Shown: piece by piece, positions 4,600 through 39,438 of the stretch | How positions within the stretch are numbered: position 1 is the stretch's first letter | Layout: each line of letters begins with the position of its first letter | NCBI RefSeq assembly: GCF_004010195.1 | Contig: NC_057751.1 | Coordinates: 2,641,286 to 2,684,184 of the forward strand | DNA: 42,899 nucleotides | From: Chiloscyllium plagiosum | Taxonomy: Eukaryota | Reading direction: 5' to 3' | Translations under genes and position numbers: made by a program | The notes under the pieces: model-generated | The model's input: only the letters and a program-made list of their open reading frames with translations | What the model was told of the DNA's origin: nothing | Database searches by the model: none

Positions 4600-5133
4600 C
4601 ATTGGTCTCCCTCCTATAGGAAGGATGTTGTGAAACTTGAAAGGGTTCAGAAATGATTTACAAGGATGTTGCCAAGGTTGGAGGATTTGAGCCGCACGGA
4701 GTGGTTGAATAGGCTGGGGCTGTTTTCCCCAGAGCGTCTGAGGCTGAGGGGCGACCTTATAAACGTTTATAAAACCATGAATTGCAGAGACATTTTTTTT
4801 TTCCCCAGAGCAGAGGAGTTCAGAACGAAAGGACATAGGTTTAGGGTGAGAGAGAAAAAAAATCTAAAAGCGAAATAAGGGACAACTTTTTCACGCAAAG
4901 GGTGATGCCTGGATGGAATGAGCTGCCAGAGGAAGTGATGGAGGCTGGTGCAATGACAACACTTAAAAGACATCTGGATGGGTATATGAATAGGAAGGGT
5001 TGAGAGGGATATGGGCCAAGTGCTGGCAAATAGGACTAGATTAAGTTAGGATATCTGGTTGGCATGGACGAGTTGGGCCGAAGGGTCTGTTTCCGTGCTG
5101 GATATCTCTGCAACTGTATGATCCTATGACTGT
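4600..5133 (+). mobile_element. HER1/CR1 LINE, 5'-truncated 3' end
   Basis: MLPRLEDLS..LNRLGLFS.ER.RLRGDLI.VYK; gggccgaagggtctgtttcc 3' UTR; high similarity to 25808-26350 and 27045-27620. Confidence 0.92.
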
Positions 5134-7914: not shown

Positions 7915-8150
7915 TGCATTGACCTGAGAAGGACACTGACAATTTTCCTACAAGTTCCGAGCATTCTTCCAGATGGCTGAGACTATGACAAACTTGATGG
8001 CAACCTCAGACCAGGCTGGCATGATCTGGTGTGATGGCCTCCATTACTAGTCCTAGAAGAGGGTGAAGTCCTGTCTCTTCTCACGTTGTTGAGCAGAGTT
8101 TCTAGGTCCCGGCCCACAAAGCGTGATGCTCATTTCCTCATGTCCAGATG
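7915..8150 (-). pseudogene. Decayed Myb/SANT-like DNA-binding gene, Harbinger/PIF transposon type
   Basis: Minus translation across frameshifts and a stop: MRK*ASRFVGRDLETLLNNV..AWSEVAIKFVIVSAIWKNAR..CRKIVSVLLRS, the F...L..LL...W..VA..V.....R....C+K....L pattern of Myb_DNA-bind_5/MSANTD. Confidence 0.6.
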
Positions 8151-8354
8151 AATATTGGGAACCGTGTGGGGCAGCTCTGGACTGATGGCACTTGTCTGGA
8201 TGCCCTCCGGGCTTTAAAAGAATGGGCAAGGATTGCTGATTAATTACAGAATATCCCAGCATTGGCACAGTCTCAGATGGATCAGGATGTCAGGAAAACC
8301 ATTGTGGTGGGATTGGTTGTTAATGAAGCAAGTTTGGGAAGGAAGTACATTTGA

Positions 8355-8655
8355 CACGAGCTATGAAGAGAGTTTGAGTAGGTTAGGTTTATTTTCACTA
8401 GAAAAAAGGAGATTGGGGGGGACCTGATTGAGGTTTACAAAATCATGAAGTGTATAGACAGGGTAGATAGAGAGAACCATTTCCCAGGGTGACGGATTCA
8501 ATAATGAGAGGTCACGGTTTCAACGTGAGAGGTGGAAAGTTTAAGGGGATACACACAGCAAGTACTTCACACAGAGGGTGATGGGTGTCTGGAACGCGTT
8601 GCCAGCAGGGATGACAGAGGCAGGCATGGTAGATTCATTTAAGATGCGTCTGGTT
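8355..8655 (+). mobile_element. CR1 LINE near-3' fragment
   Basis: SYEESLSRLGLFSLEKRRLGG. Confidence 0.8.
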
Positions 8656-8729
8656 CACCTCCAACACCTAAAAATATCTCAATAAAGGAGCAGCTCTTCC
8701 AGCCACAATTTCCTCTTCCTCCATCTTGG

Positions 8730-12002: not shown

Positions 12003-12263
12003 ATGGAAACCGAAAGAACTGCAGATGTTGTAAATCAGAAACAAAAACAGAAATTGCCGGAAAAGCTCAGCAGGGTCTGGCAGCATCTGTGGAGAGAAAT
12101 CAGAGTTAATGTTTTGGGTCCAGCCACCCTTCCTCAGAAGTGGGCAGTTAGGGTTAGGGTTAGAACTGGACAGTTCTGAGGATGAACTAAAACAATAACA
12201 TTGATTTCTCTCTGCAGATGCTGCCAGACCTGCTGAGCTTTTCCAGCAATTTCTATTTTCAGT
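12003..12263. mobile_element. Fold-back PLE derivative, family B, with telomere-like spacer
   Basis: Inverted arms ~12045-12138 and ~12175-12260. TTAGGGTTAGGGTTAG at 12148-12163. 14-bp TSD with 2 mismatches: tctcaacaatacct (11989-12002) / tctcaaaaatgcct (12264-12277). Confidence 0.85.
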
Positions 12264-13208
12264 TCTCAAAAATGCCTCTCTTTGTACATCTCCCCATCAC
12301 AATACAAAATACATTATCCTTGCATTTGGTTGAATTGCTGATTTGCAATTCTTGCATCCAACTGTCTTTCATTTTAATAGTAAATGGCGAGTTAACAGTG
12401 CAATGTTTACAGTCATTACCTCCAGCACCTTTCTGGGATGAACTATTGTGAACACAGTCTGTTGATGTTGACTCCAAGTGTGAACACCTTACACCATCGC
12501 CCCAGTAACACATTTTGACTTGTAACCAGCCGTTGTCAGTCTTGAGAACATGTCACATGAGACTCTCCATTGCGTCTTGCCATAGATACAGTTCAAACCA
12601 CATAATTTTACAAACCTCATAATTGTAACCCCATTCTCACCCAGTTATTTCCCGTCCTCAAATCCTGTTTCCACATTCTAATATTGACATGAATCACAAA
12701 TGATCAATAGTTTCTTCGAGTCAAGTACCTTCGTGCGGCGGAGCATAGGCTCTTCAACGGGATGGTTGAGTTCAGAATCTTCTCTCCGTCAGCCTTAGAC
12801 AAATGTAAATGCACCCTTGATGCAAAAGTGAATGTGTGCTGCTGTTAACAAAATGCAGTCATTGAGGCATTCATTGTATACCATGCCAATCAATATGACA
12901 AGGTCAACTTTTCCTGCAGAGAATAGTTTTATTGAAGAGCTGCTCGTGTGCCACAGAACTATAGCCTCCCTCCAAAACTGTCTTTTTTATAAGTTCTCGT
13001 TGAAACCCTGTGCAATTATTGAGCTTTGCCCACCTTTGATTCAAAGCTTTACAGTTCAAATATCTTGAAGCTGTAAGATATGTCAAAGACTTTTAGCAGA
13101 CTTTCATGAGATTAACTACTGTATCAGATATATTGTCTAATTATCAGTGTAAGCTGTTGCATTGTGACTAAGATTCATTCAATACAACCAAAATTGGTAC
13201 AATAAGTT

Positions 13209-14072: not shown

Positions 14073-14246
14073 GCTGTGTTGTGTTATTGCATTGATAACA
14101 TATTAGCCTGAAGATATCACGTGGAACTGCTCAATGACTTAGTTTAACTGTACCTCGAATTGTAGAAACATCAAAAATTTTGAGCATGCTCAGAGATTGT
14201 TCTGTCCATCGTGCCCATGCTGGCTGACAAGCATTCATACACCTCA

Positions 14247-14459
14247 GGAGAAAGTGAGGACTGCAGATGCTGGAGATCAGAGCTGAAAAATGTGTTGCTG
14301 GAAAAGCGCAGCAGGTCAGGCAGCATCCAAGGAGCAGGAGAGTCGACGATTCAGGCATGAGCCGGAATTCCTGAAGAAGGGCTCATGCCAAAAACACCGA
14401 TTCTCCTGCTCTTTGGATGCTGCCTGACCTGCTGTGCTTTTCCAGCAACACATTTTCAG
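14247..14459. mobile_element. Fold-back PLE derivative, family A
   Basis: Perfect 13-bp TSD ttcatacacctca at 14234-14246 and 14460-14472. Inverted arms around ggaattcc. Hammerhead remnant ctgaagaagggctcatgccaaaaac. Confidence 0.9.
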
Positions 14460-14538
14460 TTCATACACCTCAACCTACTCTCCATCCCTTGATTGGTTGT
14501 ATAAAGACCGTTTACTTTTACTTTTCTGTGGCTTTGAT

Positions 14539-16106
14539 TGTGGACTGACATGGGAATAAAACTGGTTTTGAAGAAAAAGATTGTTAAAGGATTGCTGCAA
14601 TATTTAAAAGTAAGTTACTGGACACTCATTGTATGTACTGTTCATACAGTGGCTTGTTCAAGTGATAGGGAGGGGGAAGCTGAGTTATGGGCTTGCTGGA
14701 ACCAAGTGCCTGTCCATGAATAGAAGTATGGCTGGTAACAAGTAGCTGATTGGTCTGTGAAATGGTGGCTAGTTATCACTGACGAGTGGCTTCTTTGACT
14801 GACAACAAATATGCATTTGGCTCCCAGGGAGCTGAACAGATTGGACTGTGAACATTTGGGGTAGAAGCCATCGGGCCTCTGGACAGGAAGCAGCTGCAAT
14901 TGCCATGTGGCAAAAAGCATCTTGTGTCTAAAGATTGCCAGTTTATTTCCGGAAGCCAGAAGCTGTAACTTTTACTCAAAAAGGCTGAGACTTAGATAAA
15001 CATGGACCGGTCACCCTGTGCTTCCTGCAAACAAATGAAAACACCTGGAGGAGGAAAACCAAAAAGAACCATTCTGATCAGCAAAGAGGTCATCTCAGTA
15101 AATACTGCAGGAGAACTACTGACCAACCTCTCCTAATCTTTTCATCTGTCATTACACCCATATTATTTTTTGTATTTGTGTATAATTGTACATGTAAAGG
15201 AAGAGATTGAAAAGTGTGTTTTTTGTAGAATCATATATTGACAGTTCATAAATATTTATCTGTTACTATAATCTATTTATTTATCTATCTATCTTGAGGT
15301 CCTGCTAAATAATTTCATATGTATCTTCCTTGTTCTGATAGCACATCAGAGCATTGAGTGTGGGAGTTGGGAGGTTATGTGCGGCTGTACCGGAGATTTT
15401 TGTAGTGTTGTGTGCAGTTACAGTCTCCCTCCTATCGGGGGGACTTTGTTAGATTTGCAAGGGTTCTGAAGGGATTTGTGGGAGTGTTGCCAGGGTTCGA
15501 GGGTTTGAGCTATAGGGAAAGGCTGAGTAGGCTGGGGCTGTTTTCCCTGGAGTGTCAGAGGCTGAGGGGTAGCTTTTTATGAAATCATGAGGGGCATGGA
15601 CAGGTTAAATAGGTAAGGTCTTTTCCCTGAGGTGGGGTGAGTCCAGAACTAGGGGGCATAGGTTTAGGGTGAGAGGGAAAAGATTTAAAAGGGTCCGAAG
15701 TGGCAACATTTTCATGCAGAAGGTGATGCGTTTGTGGAATGAATTGCCAGAAGAAGTGATGGAGGCTGGTACAATTACATCTCTTAAAAGGCATCTGGAT
15801 GGGTACATGAATGAGAAAGGGTTAGAGGAGTATCAACCAAGTGCTGGCAAATGGGAATGGATTAATCGAGGATATCTAGTCAACATGGGTGGGTTGGACC
15901 GAAGGGTCTGTTTCTGTGCTGTACATTTATATGATTTGTAATGAATACTCACTCTTGTTGAATACAGAAACTGTCTGTGTTTTCTGTCATCCTGGGTCTA
16001 AAAGATCAGTAACTTGGGAAATTCTACATGTGCTTTACAACTTTTGGGATGGCTCCAGGAAAAGAAGGCTCTGATTTCCAGTGCACCACCTGAGTGAGGC
16101 ATAACA
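14539..16106 (+). mobile_element. Possible LTR-like element interrupted by a CR1 copy
   Basis: Ends in cataaca (16100-16106), like the LTR terminus at 33019-33025. 5' boundary uncertain and no TSD found. Confidence 0.3.
15335..15940 (+). mobile_element. HER1/CR1 LINE 3' end with A-to-G hypermutated 5' segment
   Basis: Collinear with 25808-26440 (reverse) and 27045-27620; LWNELPEEVMEAGTITSLKRHLDGYM. Confidence 0.9.
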
Positions 16107-16149
16107 ATAGCCTCGTAGGTTTTTGCACTTGAAGTGTAAATGTAGATAT

Positions 16150-17524: not shown

Positions 17525-19255
17525 AATAAGGAGAGAATAAGGTCCCTTAAAGATCAATAAGGTTGTTTATGGAACTGCAGGAGATGGGAGAGGTACTAAA
17601 CGAATATTTTGCATCAGTATTCATGATAGAGAATTGATGAACTGAATTCACATGAAAGCCAGGCAACTCAGGGAAACGAATATTGATGTCTTGAAATCAG
17701 TCCACATTACGGAAGAGGAGGTGCTGGAGGTCTTAAAAAGCATAAAGGTAGATAAATCTCCAGGACCTGATCAAGTATATCCCAGGACATTGTGGGAAAT
17801 GAGGGAAGAAATTACAGGCCCTCTAGTAGAGATATTTGTATCATCTACAATCATGGTAAGGTGTTGGAAGACTGGAGGGTGGCTAATGTTGTGCCTTTAT
17901 TTCAGTAAAGCTGCAAGGAGAAACCTTGAAATTAGAGACCAGTGAGTCTGATGTCAGTGGTAGGTCAGTGTTGGAGGGGATTCTGAAAAATGAATTTGCA
18001 TGCATTTGGAGAAACAAGGACTGATTAGGGACAGTCAACATGGCTTTGTGCATGGGAGTTCATATATCACAAGCTTGATCGCAATTCTTGAAAATGTGAC
18101 CAGAAAGATAGATGAGGGCAGAGCAGTAGATATTGTCTTTCCAGACTTTAGCATGGCCTTTGACAAGGTTCCGCAAGGTAGACTGGTCACTAAAGTTAGA
18201 TCACATGGGATTCAGAGAGAAGTTCCCAACTGGATACAAAATTGACTTGACAGGGGCAGACAGAGGGTGGTGGTAAAGGGTTGTTTTTCGGACTGGAGGT
18301 CTGTGACCAGCAGTGTTCCATTGGGATCAGTGCTGGGTCCATTGTTGTTTCTCATTTCTATAAACAATTTGGTTGAGAATATAGGAAGCATGATGAGTAG
18401 GTTTGCAGATTGATAGTGAAGAACGTAATCTTCATCAATTCGGCCAATGGGCTGAGGAGTGGCAGATGGAGTTTAATTCAGTCAAATGCAAGGTGCTCAT
18501 TTTGGCAAGACAAAGACGTGCAGGACTTAGACAGTTAATGGTAGAGCCCTGGGGAGTGCTGTTTAACAGAGAGACCTCGAGATTCAGGTACAGAGTTCCT
18601 TGAAAGTGGCAGCCACAAGTAGACAGGATGGTAAAGCAGGATTGTCTTCATTGCTCAAAGCATTGAGTATAGGAGTGTGGACATCATGATATGGCTGTAC
18701 AAGACATTGGTGAGGTCATGTTTGGAGCATTGTGCACAGTTCTGGTCTCAGCAAGATATTATTTAACTGGAGAGGGGTCAGGAAAGGTTTACCAGAATGT
18801 TACCGGGACTGGAGAGTTTGAGTTATAAGGAGAGGCTGGATAGACTTGGACTTTTTTCCCTGGAGTGTAGGTAGTTGAAGGGTGACTTTGTGGAGGTCTA
18901 TAAAATCATGAGTGGAAGGTTAGGGTGAATAGCCAAGGTCTTTTCCACAGGTTTGGTGAGTTCAAAGCTGGAGGGCATAATTTTAAGGTAAGAGGAGAAA
19001 GAATTAAAAGGCACCTGAGGAATAACCCTTGCACAATGAGGATGATTCGTATGTGAATGAACTGCCAGAAGAAGTGGTTGATGCAGATATAGTTACAACA
19101 CTTAAAAGGCATTTGGACAGATACATGAATGGAAAAGGTTTAGAGGGATATAGACCAAAAGTGGGCAAACGGAATTAGTTTAGTTTGGGAAACCTGGTTG
19201 GCATGACTAGTTGGGTCTGTTTTTGTGGTGTATTACTGTTTGAGTCTCTAACTCT
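17525..19255 (+). mobile_element. 5'-truncated CR1 LINE (~1.7 kb, decayed RT and 3' UTR)
   Basis: KVDKSPGPDQVYPRTL, LIRDSQHGFVHG, DFSMAFDKVP, WAEEWQMEFN; multiple frameshifts. Confidence 0.92.
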
Positions 19256-20235: not shown

Positions 20236-20593
20236 TTTTGTGTATCTACTATGGATCCTTCATAATGCCCCTTACAGCCACCTGTTCTCTCCAAAATACC
20301 TTCTTCAGCACGGAGTGTCATCCATTTACAACTCAAACTCTGCAGAAATAAACAGCCAACTCAGTGATGATGCTAATCGCAAATTGCTTCACTCTGTTGT
20401 CTTTCCACTTAAAGACTAACAGGGGTGGACTGAATAGGATCTCTTGATGCTGATATTTTCTTGTCATATTGCATACACAAGTGATTGCATTTTTTAAAAT
20501 GTTGGAAACATGGTGAAGAGGTGAAAGGTGCTGCAGGAGTGCATTTCTGAAGGCTTCTTAGATTTTGAAAGCTTGATGTTGTGCTGATTTATT

Positions 20594-20742
20594 TAAAAAT
20601 CACACAACACCAAGTTATAGTCCAACAGGTTTATTTGGAAGTACTAGCTTTCAGGAACCTAATACATCCAAATAAACCTGTTGGACAATAACCAGGTGCA
20701 TGATTTTTAACCCCAGCCCAACACCGGCAACTCCGCATCATG
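20594..20742. mobile_element. Fold-back PLE derivative, family C
   Basis: gtccaacaggtttatttgga is inverted against tccaaataaacctgttggac; same family as 31525 and 41593. Confidence 0.8.
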
Positions 20743-22784: not shown

Positions 22785-23835
22785 CAAGACAATACAATGC
22801 ACCAAGCCTGCGCCAATTCCTCGTCTTTATTTAGACCCACTAGTTATTGCTGATGTGCAGTATCTATCCCTCTGTTCACCTCACGTTCATTTTTCTATCA
22901 AGATACGCTTTAAATGTTGCGAAAGTGCCTGCTTCCACCACTTCCACTGGCAGTGCATTCCAGGACGACCACACTCTGTGTGAAAAACTTTCCCTGCACT
23001 TCTCCCCAAACTTTCCCAATTACCTTGAATCCATGCCCTCTTGTAGATGACCTTATCACTGTGGAGAAAAGCCTCTGACTATCCACCTTATATCTGCCTC
23101 TCATAGTTTTGAAGATCTCTATCAGGTCGCCCCAAGCCTCCGTCTTTCCAGTGAAAAGAAGCCGGGTTTATCCAATCCCTCCTCATAACTAAAAACCCCC
23201 AGACCAGGCAACATCCTGACAAACCTTCTCTGCATCCTCTCCAAAGCAGCCATGCCCTTCTGGTAGTGGCGAGCAAAAGGGCGCGCAACGTTCTAAGTGT
23301 GGCCGAACTAAAGTTTTATATAGTTGGAATATAACTTGCCATCTTTAATACTCAGTGCCCCAGTCGATGAAGGCAAGCGTTCTGTATGTCTTCTTGACTA
23401 CCTTTTATCAGCCTGCATTGCCTCTTTCAGGGATCTGTGAATCTATACACCCTCAGGTTCCTCTGTATGTCAATGCTGCTAAGGGTTCTGCCGTTTATTG
23501 TATAATTTACACCTAAATTTGATCTTCCAAAATGCACCACCTCGCATTTGTCTGTGTGAAAGTCCATCTGCAATTCCTCTGCCCAAATCTGCGAACTATC
23601 CATATCCCATTGGATCCTTTGGTAATCTTCCTCACTGTCTGCACATCACCAATTTTGGTGTCATCCACAAACTTGCAAATCAGACTGCTTATGTTTTCCT
23701 CCAGATCATGTATATATATTTCAAACGACAAAGGCCCCAGCACTCATCCCAATGGAACACCATTAGTTACTGATCTCCATTCTGAAAAGCACCCTTCCAC
23801 TGCCACTCTCTGTCTTCTACAACCAAGCCAGTTTC
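22785..23835 (-). mobile_element. 5'-truncated CR1 LINE (RT C-terminal half and 3' UTR)
   Basis: LGPLSFEIYIHDLEENISSLICKFVDDTKIG; STRGHGFKV. Confidence 0.9.
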
Positions 23836-25807
23836 GGTGAGAGAGAATACTCAGTGCCATGACTTACTGGGGTATTGCACTGAAAATGAAGCCCCCTTCT
23901 TCCTAATTCATACAAAAGTTAAAATTTTAAAAAAAGATATGCAAAATCTCCAAACTACTGATTTCGCAGACCCAGATTGAGGGTCTTCACAAAAATTACT
24001 AATTGATACGAGTTATTAGATTCCAGCGACAAGTAGACAATTATTCACAACCCAAGCTATCCAGCTACCTGAGAACCAATCACATAGTTGTTAACAGGCA
24101 GAGGGCCCTCATCATTGATAACTGGCTATGAGTCCGTTCGAATCATGTTCTCCTTGTAAAGAAGCCATCCACTCCAACTCATCTGTGCATTTCTGGGACT
24201 CACAGCTGCACAAACAGGATTCATAAAAGGTATCAAATTCAAGACTTTCAAAACATGGAACAATCCTTGCAAGTCCGTTTCTCAAAATAGTTTTCTCTCA
24301 TCTTAGCCCACAGTTTTTAAAATCATGAAAATAAAAAGGCACTGTCTGTACATTAGCTATCTTCCAATTTTTTTGTCACTTCTCTGCAACGAGAGAGAGG
24401 ATATTAGCCTTTTAGAGTTTGAAGGCTTTCTGCTGCTGTTTTGTCAACACACAGGCTGACCACTTGCCCTGGAACCAATCAGAGAGTTTTCATGCTGAAC
24501 ACTACTGACCCACACAACATGTCCTGATTGAAAAACCAATCAACAGTCTGTCTATGGTCAAAATTGCCATGGGCACACTCATAGTGCCAATGATTCCAGC
24601 ATCCTCCCGTACAATTTGAACAAGACAAGAGGGAAGACACAATTCATTGTGACTCATCTTAAGACTGCAGTATTTTTTTCCCCCAGTTTCCTTGGTTGAA
24701 AGCAGTATCCTATTCCCATTTTGGTCCACAATCCACATAAAAGGAGAAGTAAAAAGATGTGGTCTTTACACAAATAACATTTCAGTCACAAACTGCCATG
24801 ATAAAGAGTTGGGCTGCTCCGCAAAGACACATTGGATATACATTGTAATGTGATAAAATGCCATTCCAGTGGAATCCTGATTGCATTATGATGTGTTGGC
24901 TGGATTGTGAAGATTAAATGGCTGATCATTCTTACTGCTGTAATAACATCACTCAAGGTGCACAGCCAATCTTTTAAATCGATGCTTTGATATTCGGGGT
25001 GGTAGGGGTTGAGCTCATTCTGCTATCTGCAGCTTGCAGGCAACTCAAAATCCTTCTTGCGCTATTCATCTACCTTCCCAACAAATGCATCTTCTGAATA
25101 AAGGAATGTCATGTGAAAGAGACGCGTAGGCATATATGTGCACACCAGAATTGTATTAACTATTTAAAAACTGACTTGTCACCAATAGAATTCCGTGTAA
25201 TGAAGCCTGGGTGTTCTAATGCTAATAACAATTAAGAATTGCTGATCATTTTTGATTACTTTGCATAGCCTAATAGCTCTATTAAATTAGCAGAGGGAGG
25301 TGAATTAATCCACAAATATTATTACCAGTCATTTCAAGTCTTTTGTAATTAGTATAGGTCCCGGTAATGAGAAAGACGCGGATTAAACATGTTTGAATTA
25401 AATTTGCAATTCTTGGAACATAATGAACTTTTGACTGATTGAAAATGCCTACACTGAAGTCCAAGGTCAACACAGACAATGAACAGTACTGCATGAATCA
25501 AACACAACAATGATTTCTTTTTTCTTGTCCACTCATTAATCAGGAAATATGGGCCACAAATTCAATTTCAGCACCTGAAGGTGGGAGAACACGAGTCAAT
25601 GCGTTACTATTCGATTACTGAATTCAGATATTGCAAGATATGAAATTAATAAAACCCATTTCCTTCACTCCACCATTGGCAGCTGTGTCAGCAGCTGACC
25701 TGTTCAGCTCTGGAATTCCCATCTTCAACCTCTCTCCCTTTCTCTGCCCTTTGTTGTTGTGTTGATCAGACCTTTAGTCAGTTGCCGTTAATTCTCTCTG
25801 TAACTTG

Positions 25808-27042
25808 ATAGAGTCATAGAGTCATAGAGATGTACGGCACAGAAGCAGACCCTTCGGTCCAACCCATCCATGCCGACCAGATATCCCAACCCAATCTAGT
25901 CCCACCTGCCAGCACCCGGCCCATATCCCTCTGAACCCTTCCTATTCATATACCCATCCAAATGCCTTTTAAATGTTGCAATTGTACCAGCCTCCACCAC
26001 TCCCTCTGGCAGCTCATTCCATATACGTACCACCCTCTGCGTGAAAAAGTTGCCCCTTAGGTCTCTTTTATATCTTTCCCCTCTCACCCTAAACCTATGC
26101 CTTCTTGTTCTGGACTCCCCCACCCCAGGGAAAAGAATTTGTCTATTTATCCTATCCATGCCCCTCATGATTTTGTAAACCTCTATATGGTCACCCCTCA
26201 GCCTCCGACATTCCAGGGAAAACAGCCCTAGCCTGTTCAGTCTCTCCCTATAGCTCAAATCCTCCAACCTTGGCAACATCCTTTTAAATCTTTTCTGAAC
26301 CCTTTCAAGTTTCACAACATCTTTCCGATAGGAAGGAGACCAGAATTGCACACAATATTCCAACAGTGGCCTAACCAATGTCCTGTACAGCCGCAACATG
26401 ACCTCCCAACTCCTGTACTCATTACTCTGACCAATAAAAGAAACCATACCAAATGCCTTCTTCACTATCCTATCTACCTGCGACTCCACTTTCAAGGAGC
26501 TATGAGCCTGCACTCCAAGGTCTCTGTGTTCAGCAACACTCCTCAGGACCTTAACGTGAAGTGTATAAGTCCTGCCCTGATTTGCTTTCCCAAAATGCAG
26601 CACCTCACTTTTATCTAAGGTAAATTCCATCTGCCACTTCTCAGCCCATTGGCCCATCTGGTCCAGATCCTGCTGTAATCTGAGGTAACCCTCTTCGCTG
26701 TTCACTACACCTCCAATTTTGGTGTCATCAGAAAACTTAGTAGCTACACCTCTTATGCTCACATCCAAATCATTTATATAAATGATGAAAAGTAGTGGAC
26801 TCAGCACCGATCCCTGTGGCACTCTACTGGCCACAGGCCTCCAGTCTGAAAAACAGCCCTCTACCACCAGTCTCTGTCTTCTACCTTTGAACCAGTTCTG
26901 TATCCAAATGGCGAGTTCTCCCTGTATTCAGTGAGATCTAACCTTGCTAACCAGCCTCCCATGAGGAATCTTGTTGAACGCCTTATTCAAGTTCATATGG
27001 AACACATCCACCGCTCTGCTCTCATCAATCGACTTTGTTACC
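25808..27042 (-). mobile_element. Young HER1/CR1 LINE, 5'-truncated, (CTATGACT)n tail
   Basis: Tail atagagtcatagagtcatagag at 25808-25829. RT frame continuous to ~27040 with a single stop. Confidence 0.95.
25896..26867 (-). CDS. CR1 ORF2 reverse transcriptase C-terminal part (323 aa open, truncated, non-autonomous)
   Basis: VPQGSVLSPLLFIIYINDL, KFSDDTKIGG, LYRTLVRPLLEYCVQFWSP, RRLRGD.IEVYKIM. Confidence 0.85.
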   Translation of the reverse strand: MVEGCFSDWRPVASRVPQGSVLSPLLFIIYINDLDVSIRGVATKFSDDTKIGGVVNSEEGYLRLQQDLDQMGQWAEKWQMEFTLDKSEVLHFGKANQGRTYTLHVKVLRSVAEHRDLGVQAHSSLKVESQVDRIVKKAFGMVSFIGQSNEYRSWEVMLRLYRTLVRPLLEYCVQFWSPSYRKDVVKLERVQKRFKRMLPRLEDLSYRERLNRLGLFSLECRRLRGDHIEVYKIMRGMDRINRQILFPGVGESRTRRHRFRVRGERYKRDLRGNFFTQRVVRIWNELPEGVVEAGTIATFKRHLDGYMNRKGSEGYGPGAGRWD

Positions 27043-27044
27043 TT

Positions 27045-27620
27045 GGTCATGTTGCAGCTGTATAGGGCACTGGTGAGACCACTTTTGGAATATTGCGTGC
27101 AATTCTGGTCTCTTCTGTATCAGAAGGATGTTATGAAACTTGAAAGGGTTCAGAAAAGATTTACAAGGATGTTGCCAGATTGCAGAATTTGAGCTCCAGG
27201 GAGAGGCGGAATAGGCTGGGGCTATTTTCCCTGGAGCGTCAGAGGCTGAGGGGTGACTTTATTGAGGTTTATAAAATCATGAGTGGCATGGTTAGGGTAA
27301 ATAGGCAAGGTCTTTTCCCTGGAATGGGAGAGTCCAGAACTAGAAGGCTGAGGTTTAGGGTGAGAGGGGAAAGATATAAAAGGGACCTAAAGGGCAACGT
27401 TTTCATGCAGAGGGTAATGCATGTACGGAATGAGCTGCCAGAGAAAATGCTGGAGGCTGGTATTATTGTGATATTTCAAGGCATCTTGATGAATAGAAAG
27501 AGTTTGGAGTGATATGGGCCGGGTGCTGGCAAATGGGACTCGATTAGGTTAGGATATCTGGTCGGCATGGATGAGTTGGACCGAAGGATCTGTTTTCGTG
27601 CTGAACATCTCTATGACTCT
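27045..27620 (+). mobile_element. HER1/CR1 LINE 3' end, head-to-head with the preceding copy
   Basis: LYRALVRPLLEYCVQFWS..KLERVQKRFTRMLP; tail ctctatgactcta. Confidence 0.92.
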
Positions 27621-27624
27621 AAGT

Positions 27625-27921
27625 GTTAGTCACGAGGGAGCATTGTTTGAAGATAAAAGGGGGGACGTTTAAAGGAGATGTGAGAAGCGTGTTTTTGCAC
27701 AGAGGATGGTATGTACCTGCGATGCACTACCAGACGAAGTAGTGAAGACAGATACAACAGCAATGTTTAAAAGGCATTTTGACAGATACTTTTAAAAGGA
27801 AGGGAATAGAGGGATATGGACCAGGTAGAGGCACAAAGTTTTTAGTTGAGGAATGCATCATGTGTCAGCGTCGGCTGACGTGGTGGCCATAGGCCCTATT
27901 CATGTGCTTTACTGTTCTTTG
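27625..27921 (+). mobile_element. CR1 LINE 3' end (different subfamily)
   Basis: cacgagggagcattgtttgaagataa..tttaaaaggcattttgacagatac..gagggatatggacc. Confidence 0.75.
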
Positions 27922-27922
27922 C

Positions 27923-28898
27923 AGAGAAAGTGAGGACTGCAGATGCTGGAGATCAGAGATGGAAATGTGTTGCTGGAAAAGCGCAGCAGGTCAGGCAGCA
28001 TCTAGGGAACAGGAGAATCGACGTTTCGGGCATTAGCCCTTCTTCAGGAATGAGGAAAGTTGGTCCAGCAGGCTAAGATAAAAGGTAGGGAGGAGGGACT
28101 TGGGGGAGGGGCGTCGGAAATGTGATAGGTGGAAAGAGGTCAAGGTGAGGGTGATAGGACAGATTGGGGTGGGGGCGGAGAGGTCGGGAAGAAGATTGCA
28201 GGTTAGGAAGGCGGTGCTGAATTCGATGGATTTGAATGAGACAGGGTGGGTGTCGGCTACTTGCGGAGCATTTCAGAGAACACCTCTGGGACACCCGGAC
28301 CAACCAACCCAACCACCCTGTAGCTCAACATTTCAATTCCCCCTACCACTCCACCAAGGATATGCAGGTCTTTGGAATCCTCCATCGTCAGACCACAATA
28401 AAACGACGNNNNNNNNNNNNNNNNNNNNNNNNNNNNNNNNNNNNNNNNNNNNNNNNNNNNNNNNNNNNNNNNNNNNNNNNNNNNNNNNNNNNNNNNNNNN
28501 NNNNNNNNNNNNNNNNNNNNNNNNNNNNNNNNNNNNNNNNNNNNNNNNNNNNNNNNNNNNNNNNNNNNNGCGGAAATGACGGCGGATGGTGCGCTGTACA
28601 TGGAGGTTAGTGGGGTGGTAGGTGAGGACTAGTGGGGTTCTGTCCTGGTGGCGGTTGGGGGGGCGGGGTTCAAGGGCGGAGGATCGGGAAGTGGGAGAGA
28701 TGCGGTGGAGGGCATCGTCGACCACGTCGGGGGGGAAATTGCGGTCCTTGAAGAAGGAGGCCATCTGGGATGTGCGTTTTTGGAACTGGTCCTCCTGGGA
28801 GCAGATGCGGCGGAGTCGAAGGAATTGGGAGAATGGGATGGCGTGCGTTTTTGGAACTGGTCCTCCTGGGAGCAGATGTGGCGGAGTCGAAGGAATTG
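27923..28898. mobile_element. Penelope-like retroelement (family A) with coding remnants in both orientations, spanning an assembly gap
   Basis: Minus-strand 3' terminus 27923-28230. Plus-strand GIY-YIG LAEHFREHLWDTRTNQPNHPVAQHFNSPYHSTKDMQV (~28255-28408). Minus-strand RT thumb AIPFSQFLRLRRICS..PLVLTYHP (28570-28845). Confidence 0.9.
28016..28051 (-). ncRNA. Minimal hammerhead ribozyme motif (intact core)
   Basis: Minus strand ATTC-CTGAAGA-A-GGGC-TAAT-GCCC-GAAA-CGTC-GATT. Perfect 4-bp stem II, palindromic ACGT in place of stem III. Confidence 0.8.
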
Positions 28899-29312: not shown

Positions 29313-30965
29313 ATTGAATTGAATTGAATTTATTGTCACGTGTACTGAGGCACAGTGAAAAGCTTTGTCTTGCGAGCAGGACAGGCAGATCACAGAGTGA
29401 AGTAGCATAGACAAGTAAATATAGGTAAACAGCAACAAAAACAAAAACACAGATCCAGGTGAATGTTAAGAGTTTGTGAGTCCATTCAGTATTCTAACGT
29501 TAAATTATCCGTAGTGTTAGGTGTATTAGTCAGGGTAAATACAGGGGGTGGGTTTCTCTTCGGAGGGTCGGTGTGGACTTATTGGGTCAAAGGGCCTGTT
29601 TCCACACTGTAGGGAATCTAATCTAATCTAATCTAATCTAATCTAATCTAATCTAATCTAACAGTAGGTAGAAACTGAAACGAAACCAGCTGGTGCATGT
29701 GTTCAGGCTTCTGTACCTTCTCCCCAGTGGTAGAGGTTGTAGAAAAACATTGCTAGGATGGGATGGATCTTTGAGAATGCTAGCAGCCTTTCCTTGACAG
29801 CGAACCTAGTAGATGGATTCTGCAGATGGGAGGTTGACCTTTGTGATTGTGCGGGTCGAGTTCACCACTCTCTGTAACAGTCTCCGATCTTGAATGGTAC
29901 AGTTGTCATACCAGGTAGTGATACATCAAAACAGAATGCTCTTGATAGCGCACCTATAAAAGTTAGCAAGGGTATTCACCGTCATGCTAAATTTCCTCAG
30001 CTGCCTGAGGAAGAAGAGACATTGTTGGGCCTTTGTAACCAGTGCGTCTGCATGAAGAGTCCAAGAAAGCTTGTTGTGGATGACTACTCTCAGGAGCTTG
30101 ACACTCCCCACTCGTTCCACCTCTGTGCTGTTAATGTGTAGGGGGGCATGAGTAACATCCTGGCAAAAGTCAGTAATGAGTTCCTTGGTTTTGCCGGCAT
30201 TGAGAGCTAGGTTGTTCTCAGTGCACCATTTTTCCAGGTCTTCCACCTCCCGTCTGTCGTCTGTTTCGTCACCATCTGACATTTGACCGACTATGGTGGT
30301 GTCATCAGCGAACTTGTAAATGGCATTAGTCTTGTGTTTGGCGACAAAGTCATGGGTATACAGTGAGTACAGTAAGGGGCTGAGTATACACCCCTGGGGG
30401 GCTCCAGTGTTGAGTGTTAGTGAGGATGAAATATTGTCCCCAATCTTCACTGATTGTGGCCTGTGGGTCAGGAAACTGAGGATCCAGTTGCAGAGAGTGG
30501 GGCTTAGTCTGAGATCACGAAGTTTAGTAATCAGTCTCGAGGGGCTAACAGTGTTAAAGGCTGAACTGTAGTCAATGAGTCGGATTCTCACGTAGCTGTT
30601 CTTGGTGTCAAGATGTTCTCAGAAGGAGTGAAGGGCAAGTGATACGGCATCTGATGTGAATCTGTTGGTCCAGTAGGCGAATTGGAGTGGGTCCAGATTA
30701 GTGGGGAGGCTGGAAGTGATTAATGCCATGACCAGCCTTTCAAAGCACTTCATGACCACCGAAGTTACGGCTCATGCTGCATGAGCTTTCTTAGGCACGG
30801 GGATGATGTTGGCCCTCTTGAAACAGGCAGGGACAGTGGCCTGCTGTAGGGAGAGGGTGAAGATATCCGAGAAGATCTCTGCCGGTTAATCTGCGTATGC
30901 TCTGAGTGCACGGCCTGGTACTCTGTCTAGTCCCATCGCTTTCACTGGATTTACATGAATAAAAT
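29313..30965 (-). mobile_element. Rex1/Babar-type LINE, 5'-truncated
   Basis: ORF 29926-30591: IDYSSAFNT, TGAPQGCILSPLLYSLYTHD, KFADDTTIVG, KAQQCLFFLRQLRKF. (ATTCA)n tail at 29313-29330. Confidence 0.9.
29499..29659 (+). mobile_element. 5'-truncated HE1-type SINE with (AATCT)9 tail, nested in the Rex1 LINE
   Basis: Matches 35787-35916. aatct x9 at 29615-29659. Possible TSD tctaac (29493-29498, 29657-29662). Confidence 0.85.
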
Positions 30966-37552: not shown

Positions 37553-37802
37553 GTTCAATAAAAACTGAAAGAACTGCAGATGCTGTAAATGAGAAACGAA
37601 AACAGAAGTTCCTGGAAAAGCTCAGCAGGTCTGGCAACATCTGTGAAGAGGAATCAAAGGAAATGTTTTAGGTCCGGTCATCCTTCCTCAGAGCTGATCT
37701 TGCAGATCTGAAGAAGGGTCACCAGACTCAAAACGTTTAATTTGATTTTTCTTCACAGGTACTGACAGAATTGCTGAGCTTTTCCAGCAACTTCTGTTTT
37801 TG
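37553..37802. mobile_element. Fold-back PLE derivative, family B
   Basis: Inverted arms ~37598-37692 and ~37706-37802. TSD tgtcaaaga (37542-37550, 37803-37811). Hammerhead remnant CTGAAGA-A-GGGTC-ACCA-GACTC-AAAAC at 37708-37734. Confidence 0.85.
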
Positions 37803-38469
37803 TGTCAAAGAACGCTGCTGGATATTTTAAGTCCAGACTGAAGTGTTGAGTCCTTGTACAACATCTTATCATCTGAGTGTGAACTATATCCTGAATATTA
37901 CGATATTAAAGGTCCTATAAGATGGGACCTAAATTACTTGTGGTATTGCTCTGACAGAATGATCCAATTTGTCCTGCTTTCATCTCTTTTCTCATAATCC
38001 TGCAAAATCTTTCCTTATGGAATTAAGATCCATTTTCCTTTCACAAGTTAGTTTTGAATCTGCTTTTGGCAGTACATTCTACATAAAGATATTCTCATCT
38101 CCCCTCTGGTGCTTTTGCCATTAATCTGAAATCTTTCTGGTACTTTTGCCAATTGCATGTTTCAGTGACGAACCCTCCCACCATTAGAAACAGTTTCTCA
38201 TTATTTTGTCATTGAAATTATCCATCATTCTGAGCATCTTGATTGAATATCTTCTTAACCATCTCTGCTTTGAGAAGAATACCTCAGGCTTCTGACATCA
38301 CTGTTCAGAATTATGGAGACTAGTTAGAAGAAACCAAATTTCTTGAAACCAGAGAAGAGACAATTCTGGGGAGCTTTAACAGAATTGCCCAAGATGATGA
38401 AAGTCAGTCCAAATGGCACAAGTTTGTACAATGCACTGAGGATGGAGAGACATGAACATTTGACACAGG

Positions 38470-39220: not shown

Positions 39221-39244
39221 TGAGCGAGTTTATCTCAGAATCCA

Positions 39245-39438
39245 GGAAGAGAGTGATGACTCCAAGTGCTGGAGATCAGAGTCGAGAGTGTGGTGCTGGA
39301 AAAGCACAGCAGGTGGATCGACATTTCAGGCAAGAGCCCTTCATCAGGAATGGGCCTCATTCGTGATGAACGGTTCTGCCTGAAGCACAATTCTCCTACT
39401 CCTCTGATGCTGCCTCACCAGCACCACACTCTCGACTT
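39245..39438. mobile_element. Fold-back PLE derivative, family A-related
   Basis: Perfect 10-bp TSD tcagaatcca (39235-39244, 39439-39448). agtcgagagtgtggtgctgg is inverted against ccagcaccacactctcgact. Confidence 0.85.
39317..39351 (-). ncRNA. Minimal hammerhead ribozyme motif
   Basis: Minus strand ATTC-CTGATGA-A-GGGC-TCTT-GCCT-GAAA-TGTC-GAT. Confidence 0.7.

Follow-up and report, generated by a model that had tools for sequence, protein, structure and literature searches.

A strand-specific A-to-G cluster in an old CR1-type LINE copy of Chiloscyllium plagiosum is probably a scar of ADAR editing

A-to-G hypermutation ascribed to ADAR1 is known from avian retroviruses. In bovine leukaemia virus, A-to-G hypermutated proviruses, with changes in the U3 region of the 3′ LTR, have likewise been ascribed to this enzyme (PMC8025556). 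In the available part of that source, they resemble the copy described here in carrying a short sense-strand A>G patch fixed in DNA through reverse transcription of edited RNA; the proviruses, however, are somatic and belong to an LTR retrovirus, whereas the present copy is a germline-fixed non-LTR element common to two species. An endogenous mouse provirus, as far as the accessible text of its report goes, has an A>G excess without ADAR context (PMC12548423). APOBEC G>A scars have been described in LTR elements (PMC4866542) and in lizard L1 but, in the portion of the source available, not in lizard CR1 (PMC3880073). Such scars share with the one considered here a strand-specific deaminase footprint that dates from insertion and is read against sister copies, and differ from it in that APOBEC converts C to U on cDNA, whereas ADAR would have converted A to I on RNA. 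The APOBEC screens, in their available descriptions, selected G-to-A and filtered A-to-G out, and the present cluster would not pass the run length that they require; one study has taken A>G clusters in retroelement DNA as a comparison class (PMC2873906). Transcriptome hyper-editing (PMC5625713, PMC4365171) offers a further likeness in its dense A>G changes, its 5′-G depletion and its use of CR1 3′ fragments as substrate, but is seen only in RNA, whereas the CR1 scar lies in genomic DNA and is overlaid by later decay. No report of germline-fixed ADAR scars in LINE copies was found in the full-text literature, whose scope leaves out most subscription journals and supplements. APOBEC scars are thus known from genomic retroelements, and ADAR scars from somatic proviruses.

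We analysed a stretch of 42,899 nucleotides (the window). A preliminary description, made from the sequence alone, had proposed that one CR1 copy in it is derived from a hyper-edited LINE RNA. This copy has the following parts:

15346 to 15945, plus strand: 5′-truncated CR1-type LINE copy (last part of ORF2 and 3′ end), delimited by alignment and depth
15347 to 15860, plus strand: dead ORF2 C-terminal remnant, from alignment with sister copies and homologous proteins
15861 to 15945, plus strand: 3′ UTR with a decayed tail of short tandem repeats and no poly-A, from the sister alignment

Homology ends upstream at about 15346, and depth drops to single copy on either side of the element. The copy is 78% identical to 25822-26430 on the minus strand (611 columns) and 72-75% identical to three further copies. 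This 26-kb sister holds a 343-aa open frame (25899-26927, minus strand) that matches RVT_1 (PF00078; E 1.1e-12), and our copy aligns with the C-terminal part of it. The C-terminal 160 aa of the sister frame returned 220 homologues, of which the best 120 were taken; among these are bird and turtle proteins of 46-50% identity, labelled hypothetical or reverse transcriptase and none of them CR1, which we take to be CR1 proteins. The ORF2 remnant has lost 1 base near 15380, 12 bases near 15398 and 8 bases near 15575, has gained 1 base near 15638, and is interrupted by stops at 15403-05 and 15614-16. In family contigs the short tandem repeat continues behind 15926, and no poly-A follows. A poly-A tail marks Zenon, unlike CR1-group LINEs (PMC13343379, in the part available); the copy and its sisters fit a CR1-type element, a class predicted from the RVT_1 domain, the truncation and the tandem tail. 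High copy number, 5′ truncation and a tandem tail are likewise described, in the accessible texts, for CR1-group LINEs of sharks and rays (PMC13343379; the HER1 LINE / HE1 SINE pair, PMC3747384), and summed contig depth, a rough proxy, puts the present family at ~2-3 × 10^5 copies. No clear target-site duplication was seen around 15346-15945, and no host-gene Pfam domain in the 109 of 110 open frames of at least 75 aa scanned in the window. The flanks at 15002-15103, 15206-15256 and 15971-16123 reach 3-10 times single-copy depth in places, and the copy may sit inside an older low-copy repeat. A different LINE at 29929-30618 on the minus strand matches RVT_1 (E 2e-19) and, behind it, PF09004 (E 2e-9), a pairing that presumably points to a Rex1/Babar- or L2-like element.

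Changes were counted against the majority of four sisters (25805-27030, minus strand; 27040-27625; 4600-5130; 18105-19220), a reference that spans more than one subfamily and is not the true parent of the copy. Two distant copies (22795-23830 and 8150-8700) were aligned and kept out of the counts. Between 15350 and 15530, G stands in place of 17 of 49 A's, compared with 3/49 for T>C, 3/52 for G>A and 3/20 for C>T. From 15531 to 15935 the A>G count is 8/101 (Fisher p 1e-4 against the segment, the boundary having been set post hoc). Four of these G's (15405, 15417, 15493 and 15503) are common to the 18.1-kb sister. The codons at 15493 and 15503 specify glycine in 79/94 and 80/96 homologous proteins among the best 120 of 220; because glycine is the family residue there, both G's are ancestral. 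The strict count is confined to changes private to the copy and leaves these four sites out; a candidate site at 15349 was an alignment slip and was discarded. The cluster is then made up as follows:

15360 to 15527, plus strand: cluster of sense A>G changes (sites 15405 and 15417 ambiguous; 15493 and 15503 ancestral G)
15360, 15362, 15407, 15439, 15440, 15452, 15471, 15472, 15478, 15480, 15481, 15484 and 15527, plus strand: private A>G sites
15439 to 15484, plus strand: densest core, with 9 private A>G in 46 bases, from the list of private changes
15478 to 15480, plus strand: ACA read as GTG; family contigs have ACA here in all four sequencing runs compared

Private A>G changes number 13/45 in the segment versus 6/95 downstream (p 9e-4). 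Private T>C changes stand at 2/48 against these 13/45 (p 1.5e-3), A>T and A>C together come to just 3 in the segment, and private changes other than A>G are not raised there (15/163 versus 25/364 downstream; p 0.38). The preliminary description had placed an A>G cluster at about 15349-15530 and had found no such bias in the following ~400 bp. Both statements hold with the four-sister majority as reference, with A>G in excess over T>C as well as over the downstream part, although the private cluster is smaller than the raw count; that A>G might not be enriched over other substitutions is contradicted by the unraised other classes. All seven changes quoted there as examples occur in the sequence, but two of them (gcaatt>gcagtt and gaggatt>gagggtt) carry no evidence, their G's being shared with the 18.1-kb sister or ancestral.

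Two other candidates were rejected, namely general hypermutation of the core (scan p 0.46) and APOBEC-type editing at 15814-15883 (G>A at 9/27 G's, p 0.24, partly common to a sister). Adjacent GA/AG swaps relative to the sister majority occur at 15483-84, 15571-72, 15813-14 and 15829-30, two of which involve a letter common to the 18.1-kb sister.

The changed sites carry the neighbour bias of ADAR for which the preliminary description had suggested looking. A 5′ G precedes 2/13 changed versus 15/29 unchanged A's (one-sided p 0.027, two-sided p 0.041, on small numbers), and control A>G changes elsewhere show no bias (11/31 changed versus 207/578 unchanged). Depletion of 5′ G is a pan-metazoan mark of ADAR (PMC5625713, in the part available). 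On the 3′ side, changed A's are followed by A 6, G 3, C 2 and T 2 (n = 13) and unchanged A's by G 11, A 9, T 6 and C 3 (n = 29); no 3′ preference of the kinds sought (for a following G, as in mammals and reptiles, or a following A, as in the other group) was seen at the 13 changed sites. Tandem AA>GG changes (15439-40, 15471-72 and 15480-81) affect 3/36 AA pairs of the copy, all in the segment, versus 1/140 in the four sisters. The GTG at 15478-80 fits A>G changes at both A's that made a CpG, which later decayed to TpG, an order of events that we infer.

Changes of A>G type fall on six conserved ORF2 codons (Y11C, Y31C, K42G, R53G, R56G and M57V). At most two such changes occur in each of 72 homologous proteins, and 0/80 proteins share more than one of 10 marked residues, both among the best 120 of 220, a control set that is biased by similarity ranking and by the requirement for open frames. 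By the standards of published screens, as given in the available parts of the sources, the picture is divided. The A>G density of 13/163 columns (8%) lies above the threshold of at least 5% of length in PMC4365171. With 13/28 private changes (46%), A>G misses the >60% that the same study demands; that filter was made for RNA reads, and our copy bears ~8% later decay. The longest uninterrupted A>G run is 3, short of the DNA-editing filter of PMC4866542, which needs 5 and at least 10 in all. The ~8% later decay explains the failure of both the purity and the run-length filters, yet both remain misses.

Could such a cluster arise by chance, as a tail of neutral decay read against an imperfect reference, with some of the G's being states of an unsampled parent? 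We simulated copies of 145 A's and scored at least 13 matches in any 45 consecutive A's; the chance per copy was 1e-6 at a background of 4.5%, 3e-5 at 6% and 3e-4 at 7.5%. With ~2-3 × 10^5 copies in the family, chance could produce such a case somewhere in the genome if the true background is at least 6%; at 6-7.5%, several to dozens of copies like this one would be expected genome-wide. The measured A>G background is only 3.3-3.8% (9/237 in this copy, 13/398 in three close sisters). The cluster came, moreover, from 178 windows of the genome, which at an assumed five per window hold ~10^3 comparable copies; a chance case among them is unlikely, with well under one expected at 4.5-6%. A within-copy permutation scan is weaker than the simulation (p 0.01, as one of 20 tests), an equal scan p (0.01) was obtained for a small A>G cluster of the 26-kb sister itself, and 4/17 sites fell away under closer checking. 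Against these points stand the avoidance of 5′ G and the AA>GG tandems, which are separate signals, and the fact that most of the remaining G's break conserved codons and hence were not inherited from a working parent element. We therefore regard chance as unlikely.

Depletion of 5′ G does not separate ADAR from polymerase eta, whose motif is A>G after A or T; 10/13 sites follow A or T, and the cluster adjoins the 5′ junction. The changes after A or T would then date from polymerase-eta-type synthesis of the 5′ sense strand, in second-strand synthesis or 5′-junction repair. Insertion of dGTP opposite template T by polymerase eta has been described (PMC13716900, in the part available). Other changes are somewhat denser at 15400-15484 (10/77 versus 30/450; p 0.06), but this excess is gone after scan correction (p 0.46), and the segment has only the 3 A>T and A>C changes. 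Polymerase eta errs at a rate of a few per cent, and a change of 29% of the A's in one pass would be well above this. We consider this origin quite unlikely.

An error of the LINE reverse transcriptase, which would have put C opposite A over a short stretch (through pool imbalance or a damaged template) and then fallen off, would also be sense-only, made at insertion and adjacent to the truncation point. It gives no reason for the avoidance of 5′ G or for the AA>GG tandems, and comparable A>G patches in proviruses have been ascribed to ADAR1 instead (PMC8025556, in the part available); we think it very unlikely.

The copy number and integrity of the locus were assessed in contigs (not raw reads) of four runs: X1 and X15 (organism A, different studies), X5 (organism B) and X8 (organism C). 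The X1 contig (14900-15514) and the X15 contig (14900-15464) each differ from the window at 2 letters; the former covers 12/13 private sites and may come from the source sample, and the latter covers 6. An assembly artefact, which the preliminary description had named as a possible refutation, is thus refuted at the level of contigs by agreement between two studies. One of the two X1 differences is a T at the CpG of 15436, where X15 and the window have C; this site is thus polymorphic in organism A.

At 88% likeness, X1 and X15 both show single-copy depth at 15436, versus ~2 × 10^5-fold at 15512-62. In each of the four runs, contigs whose match begins at 15485 have the A-rich form further upstream; the family contigs nearest to the copy are rich in A at 15455-84, and a pattern scan of metagenome contigs for further copies found 0. 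These data bear on the possibility, also raised at the outset, that an abundant subfamily has the G-rich form as its consensus, and on the related one that this form belongs to an abundant non-autonomous derivative. A/G differences between subfamilies are real in this family, as at 15493 and 15503. The single-copy depth and the A-rich family contigs nevertheless refute an abundant subfamily, as do the conserved residues destroyed in the copy and shared so sparsely by the homologous proteins, and we hold this explanation to be highly improbable. A few old, diverged siblings may exist but would shift the editing event no more than one step back.

One contig of organism C spans the junction and the cluster:

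15234 to 15534, plus strand: contig of related organism C, running from unique flank through the whole cluster, with 12 other letters and 2 gaps

Organism C, which is 4-7% diverged, thus carries the same CR1 insertion; the X5 contig of organism B covers the right flank only, from 15919. Three X8 contigs give 15 differences in 363 on the left flank of organism C and 37 in 502 on the right. Junction and cluster together show 12 differences over 301 letters; the divergence of the flanks would predict 12-22. Three of these 12 lie at 15328-15332, and one of the gaps falls in the G run at 15438. With those three set aside, no more than 9 of the 13 sites can have another letter in organism C, and if nine did, just 3 neutral differences would be left versus the 12-22 expected (P ≤ 2e-3). 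Steady mutation at a hot spot would call for 20-35 differences and is disfavoured (P 0.05 to <0.001). The G's are mostly older than the split of organisms A and C, which fits an origin at insertion but is no proof of it. Slow post-insertion mutation (a transcription-coupled A>G bias or GC-biased gene conversion) or an assembly error is extremely improbable, given that T>C is not raised (2/48), that sisters on both strands show no bias of A>G over T>C, that the organism C contig is too similar for a steady hot spot, and that contigs of two studies match the assembly.

Retrotransposition of an ADAR-edited CR1 RNA is the best-supported reading, on account of strand specificity, 5′-G avoidance, the tandems, damage not compatible with coding, single-copy status and early origin, and we consider it rather more probable than its negation. 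The cluster, its strand and neighbour bias, the single-copy status and the presence in a relative are observed. Taken together, they describe a real, old, single-copy germline cluster that is probably an ADAR scar. The enzyme, the duplex and the origin of the changes on RNA are what we infer. The template, either the RNA of a CR1-type LINE or a host transcript with a CR1 3′ end, would have been double-stranded over at least 170 bases of its ORF2 tail. Its partner would most likely have been an antisense CR1 fragment, a kind of sequence present on the order of 10^5 times in this genome. ADAR would have converted about 30% of the A's in the duplex to inosine. Starting from the unedited 3′ end, the LINE reverse transcriptase would have copied ~400 unedited bases, taken the inosines further on for G and broken off at 15346. 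The resulting copy would have become fixed in the germline before the split of organisms A and C and undergone neutral decay (~8% other changes). Because a LINE with recognition of its own 3′ end can also mobilise foreign RNAs that bear this end (PMC3747384, in the part available), the template need not have been a master transcript.

No intrinsic hairpin was found in the matching RNA of the sister (z +0.77); since the sister RNA has no hairpin of its own, the duplex partner would have to be a second copy. Head-to-head inverted CR1 3′ fragments at 25968-26403 and 27045-27479 are 84-88% complementary and 641 bases apart; judged by their sequence, they would form a ready ADAR substrate if transcribed, and suggest that such substrates exist. 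Short, partly palindromic repeats lie at 1-171, 12004-12268, 14240-14462, 20593-20741, 27924-28051, 37561-37806 and 39243-39437; several are near-perfect fold-backs with 6-16 bases between the arms and would be strong ADAR substrates. Within the available text of PMC5625713, chicken CR1 3′ fragments, heavily edited on account of such pairing, are a main ADAR target, and elephant shark RNA is heavily hyper-edited, with 81% of the editing in repeats. Human L1 RNA, by contrast, was unedited by ADAR1 over the ~5 kb examined (PMC5224506, in the part available), and a single copy cannot prove ADAR editing. Of the proposal that a LINE RNA was hyper-edited and then retrotransposed, the signature stands, and the refutations named with it failed; against it, no duplex partner was identified, and the purity filters were missed.

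A further part of that proposal, that the cluster is a trace of host anti-retroelement activity, is unsupported. The copy did integrate, ADAR edits repeat duplexes in bulk (PMC5625713), and human L1 is restricted by ADAR1 mainly without editing (PMC5224506; both in the parts available). In the best explanation, the CR1 scar was left as a by-product when repeats were edited in bulk, and it does not demonstrate a defence event. If the ADAR reading is true, LINE RNA that contains inosine can be reverse-transcribed in germ cells, and RNA edits have a direct way into inherited DNA. How fast and when this has happened could be measured in shark genomes, with their CR1 copies numbering at least 10^5; one old, noisy copy invites a genome-wide screen and is no result by itself.

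A broader idea, which we offer as speculative and on present evidence doubtful, is that ADAR edits in CR1 RNA enter the germline routinely, lethal patches giving dead copies while edits in the ORF2 end or 3′ UTR survive and found subfamilies. If so, A-to-I editing would be a heritable source of mutation that drives LINE subfamily evolution, and the genome a datable record of germline ADAR activity. A 2016 review, in its available part, left the role of ADAR editing in Alu subfamily evolution to be determined (PMC4982230). The young CR1 sister at 25805-27030 (minus strand), which has the 343-aa frame, carries 6 A>G changes in the 31 bases at 25887-25917, across the ORF2 end and 3′ UTR; these are possibly ADAR edits fixed in an active lineage. 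Their 5′ neighbours are C, A, A, A, T and T, so that none follows G, and two stand in a TAG context. Two of the six are common to 27040-27625, the scan p is 0.01, and the changes also lengthen G runs.
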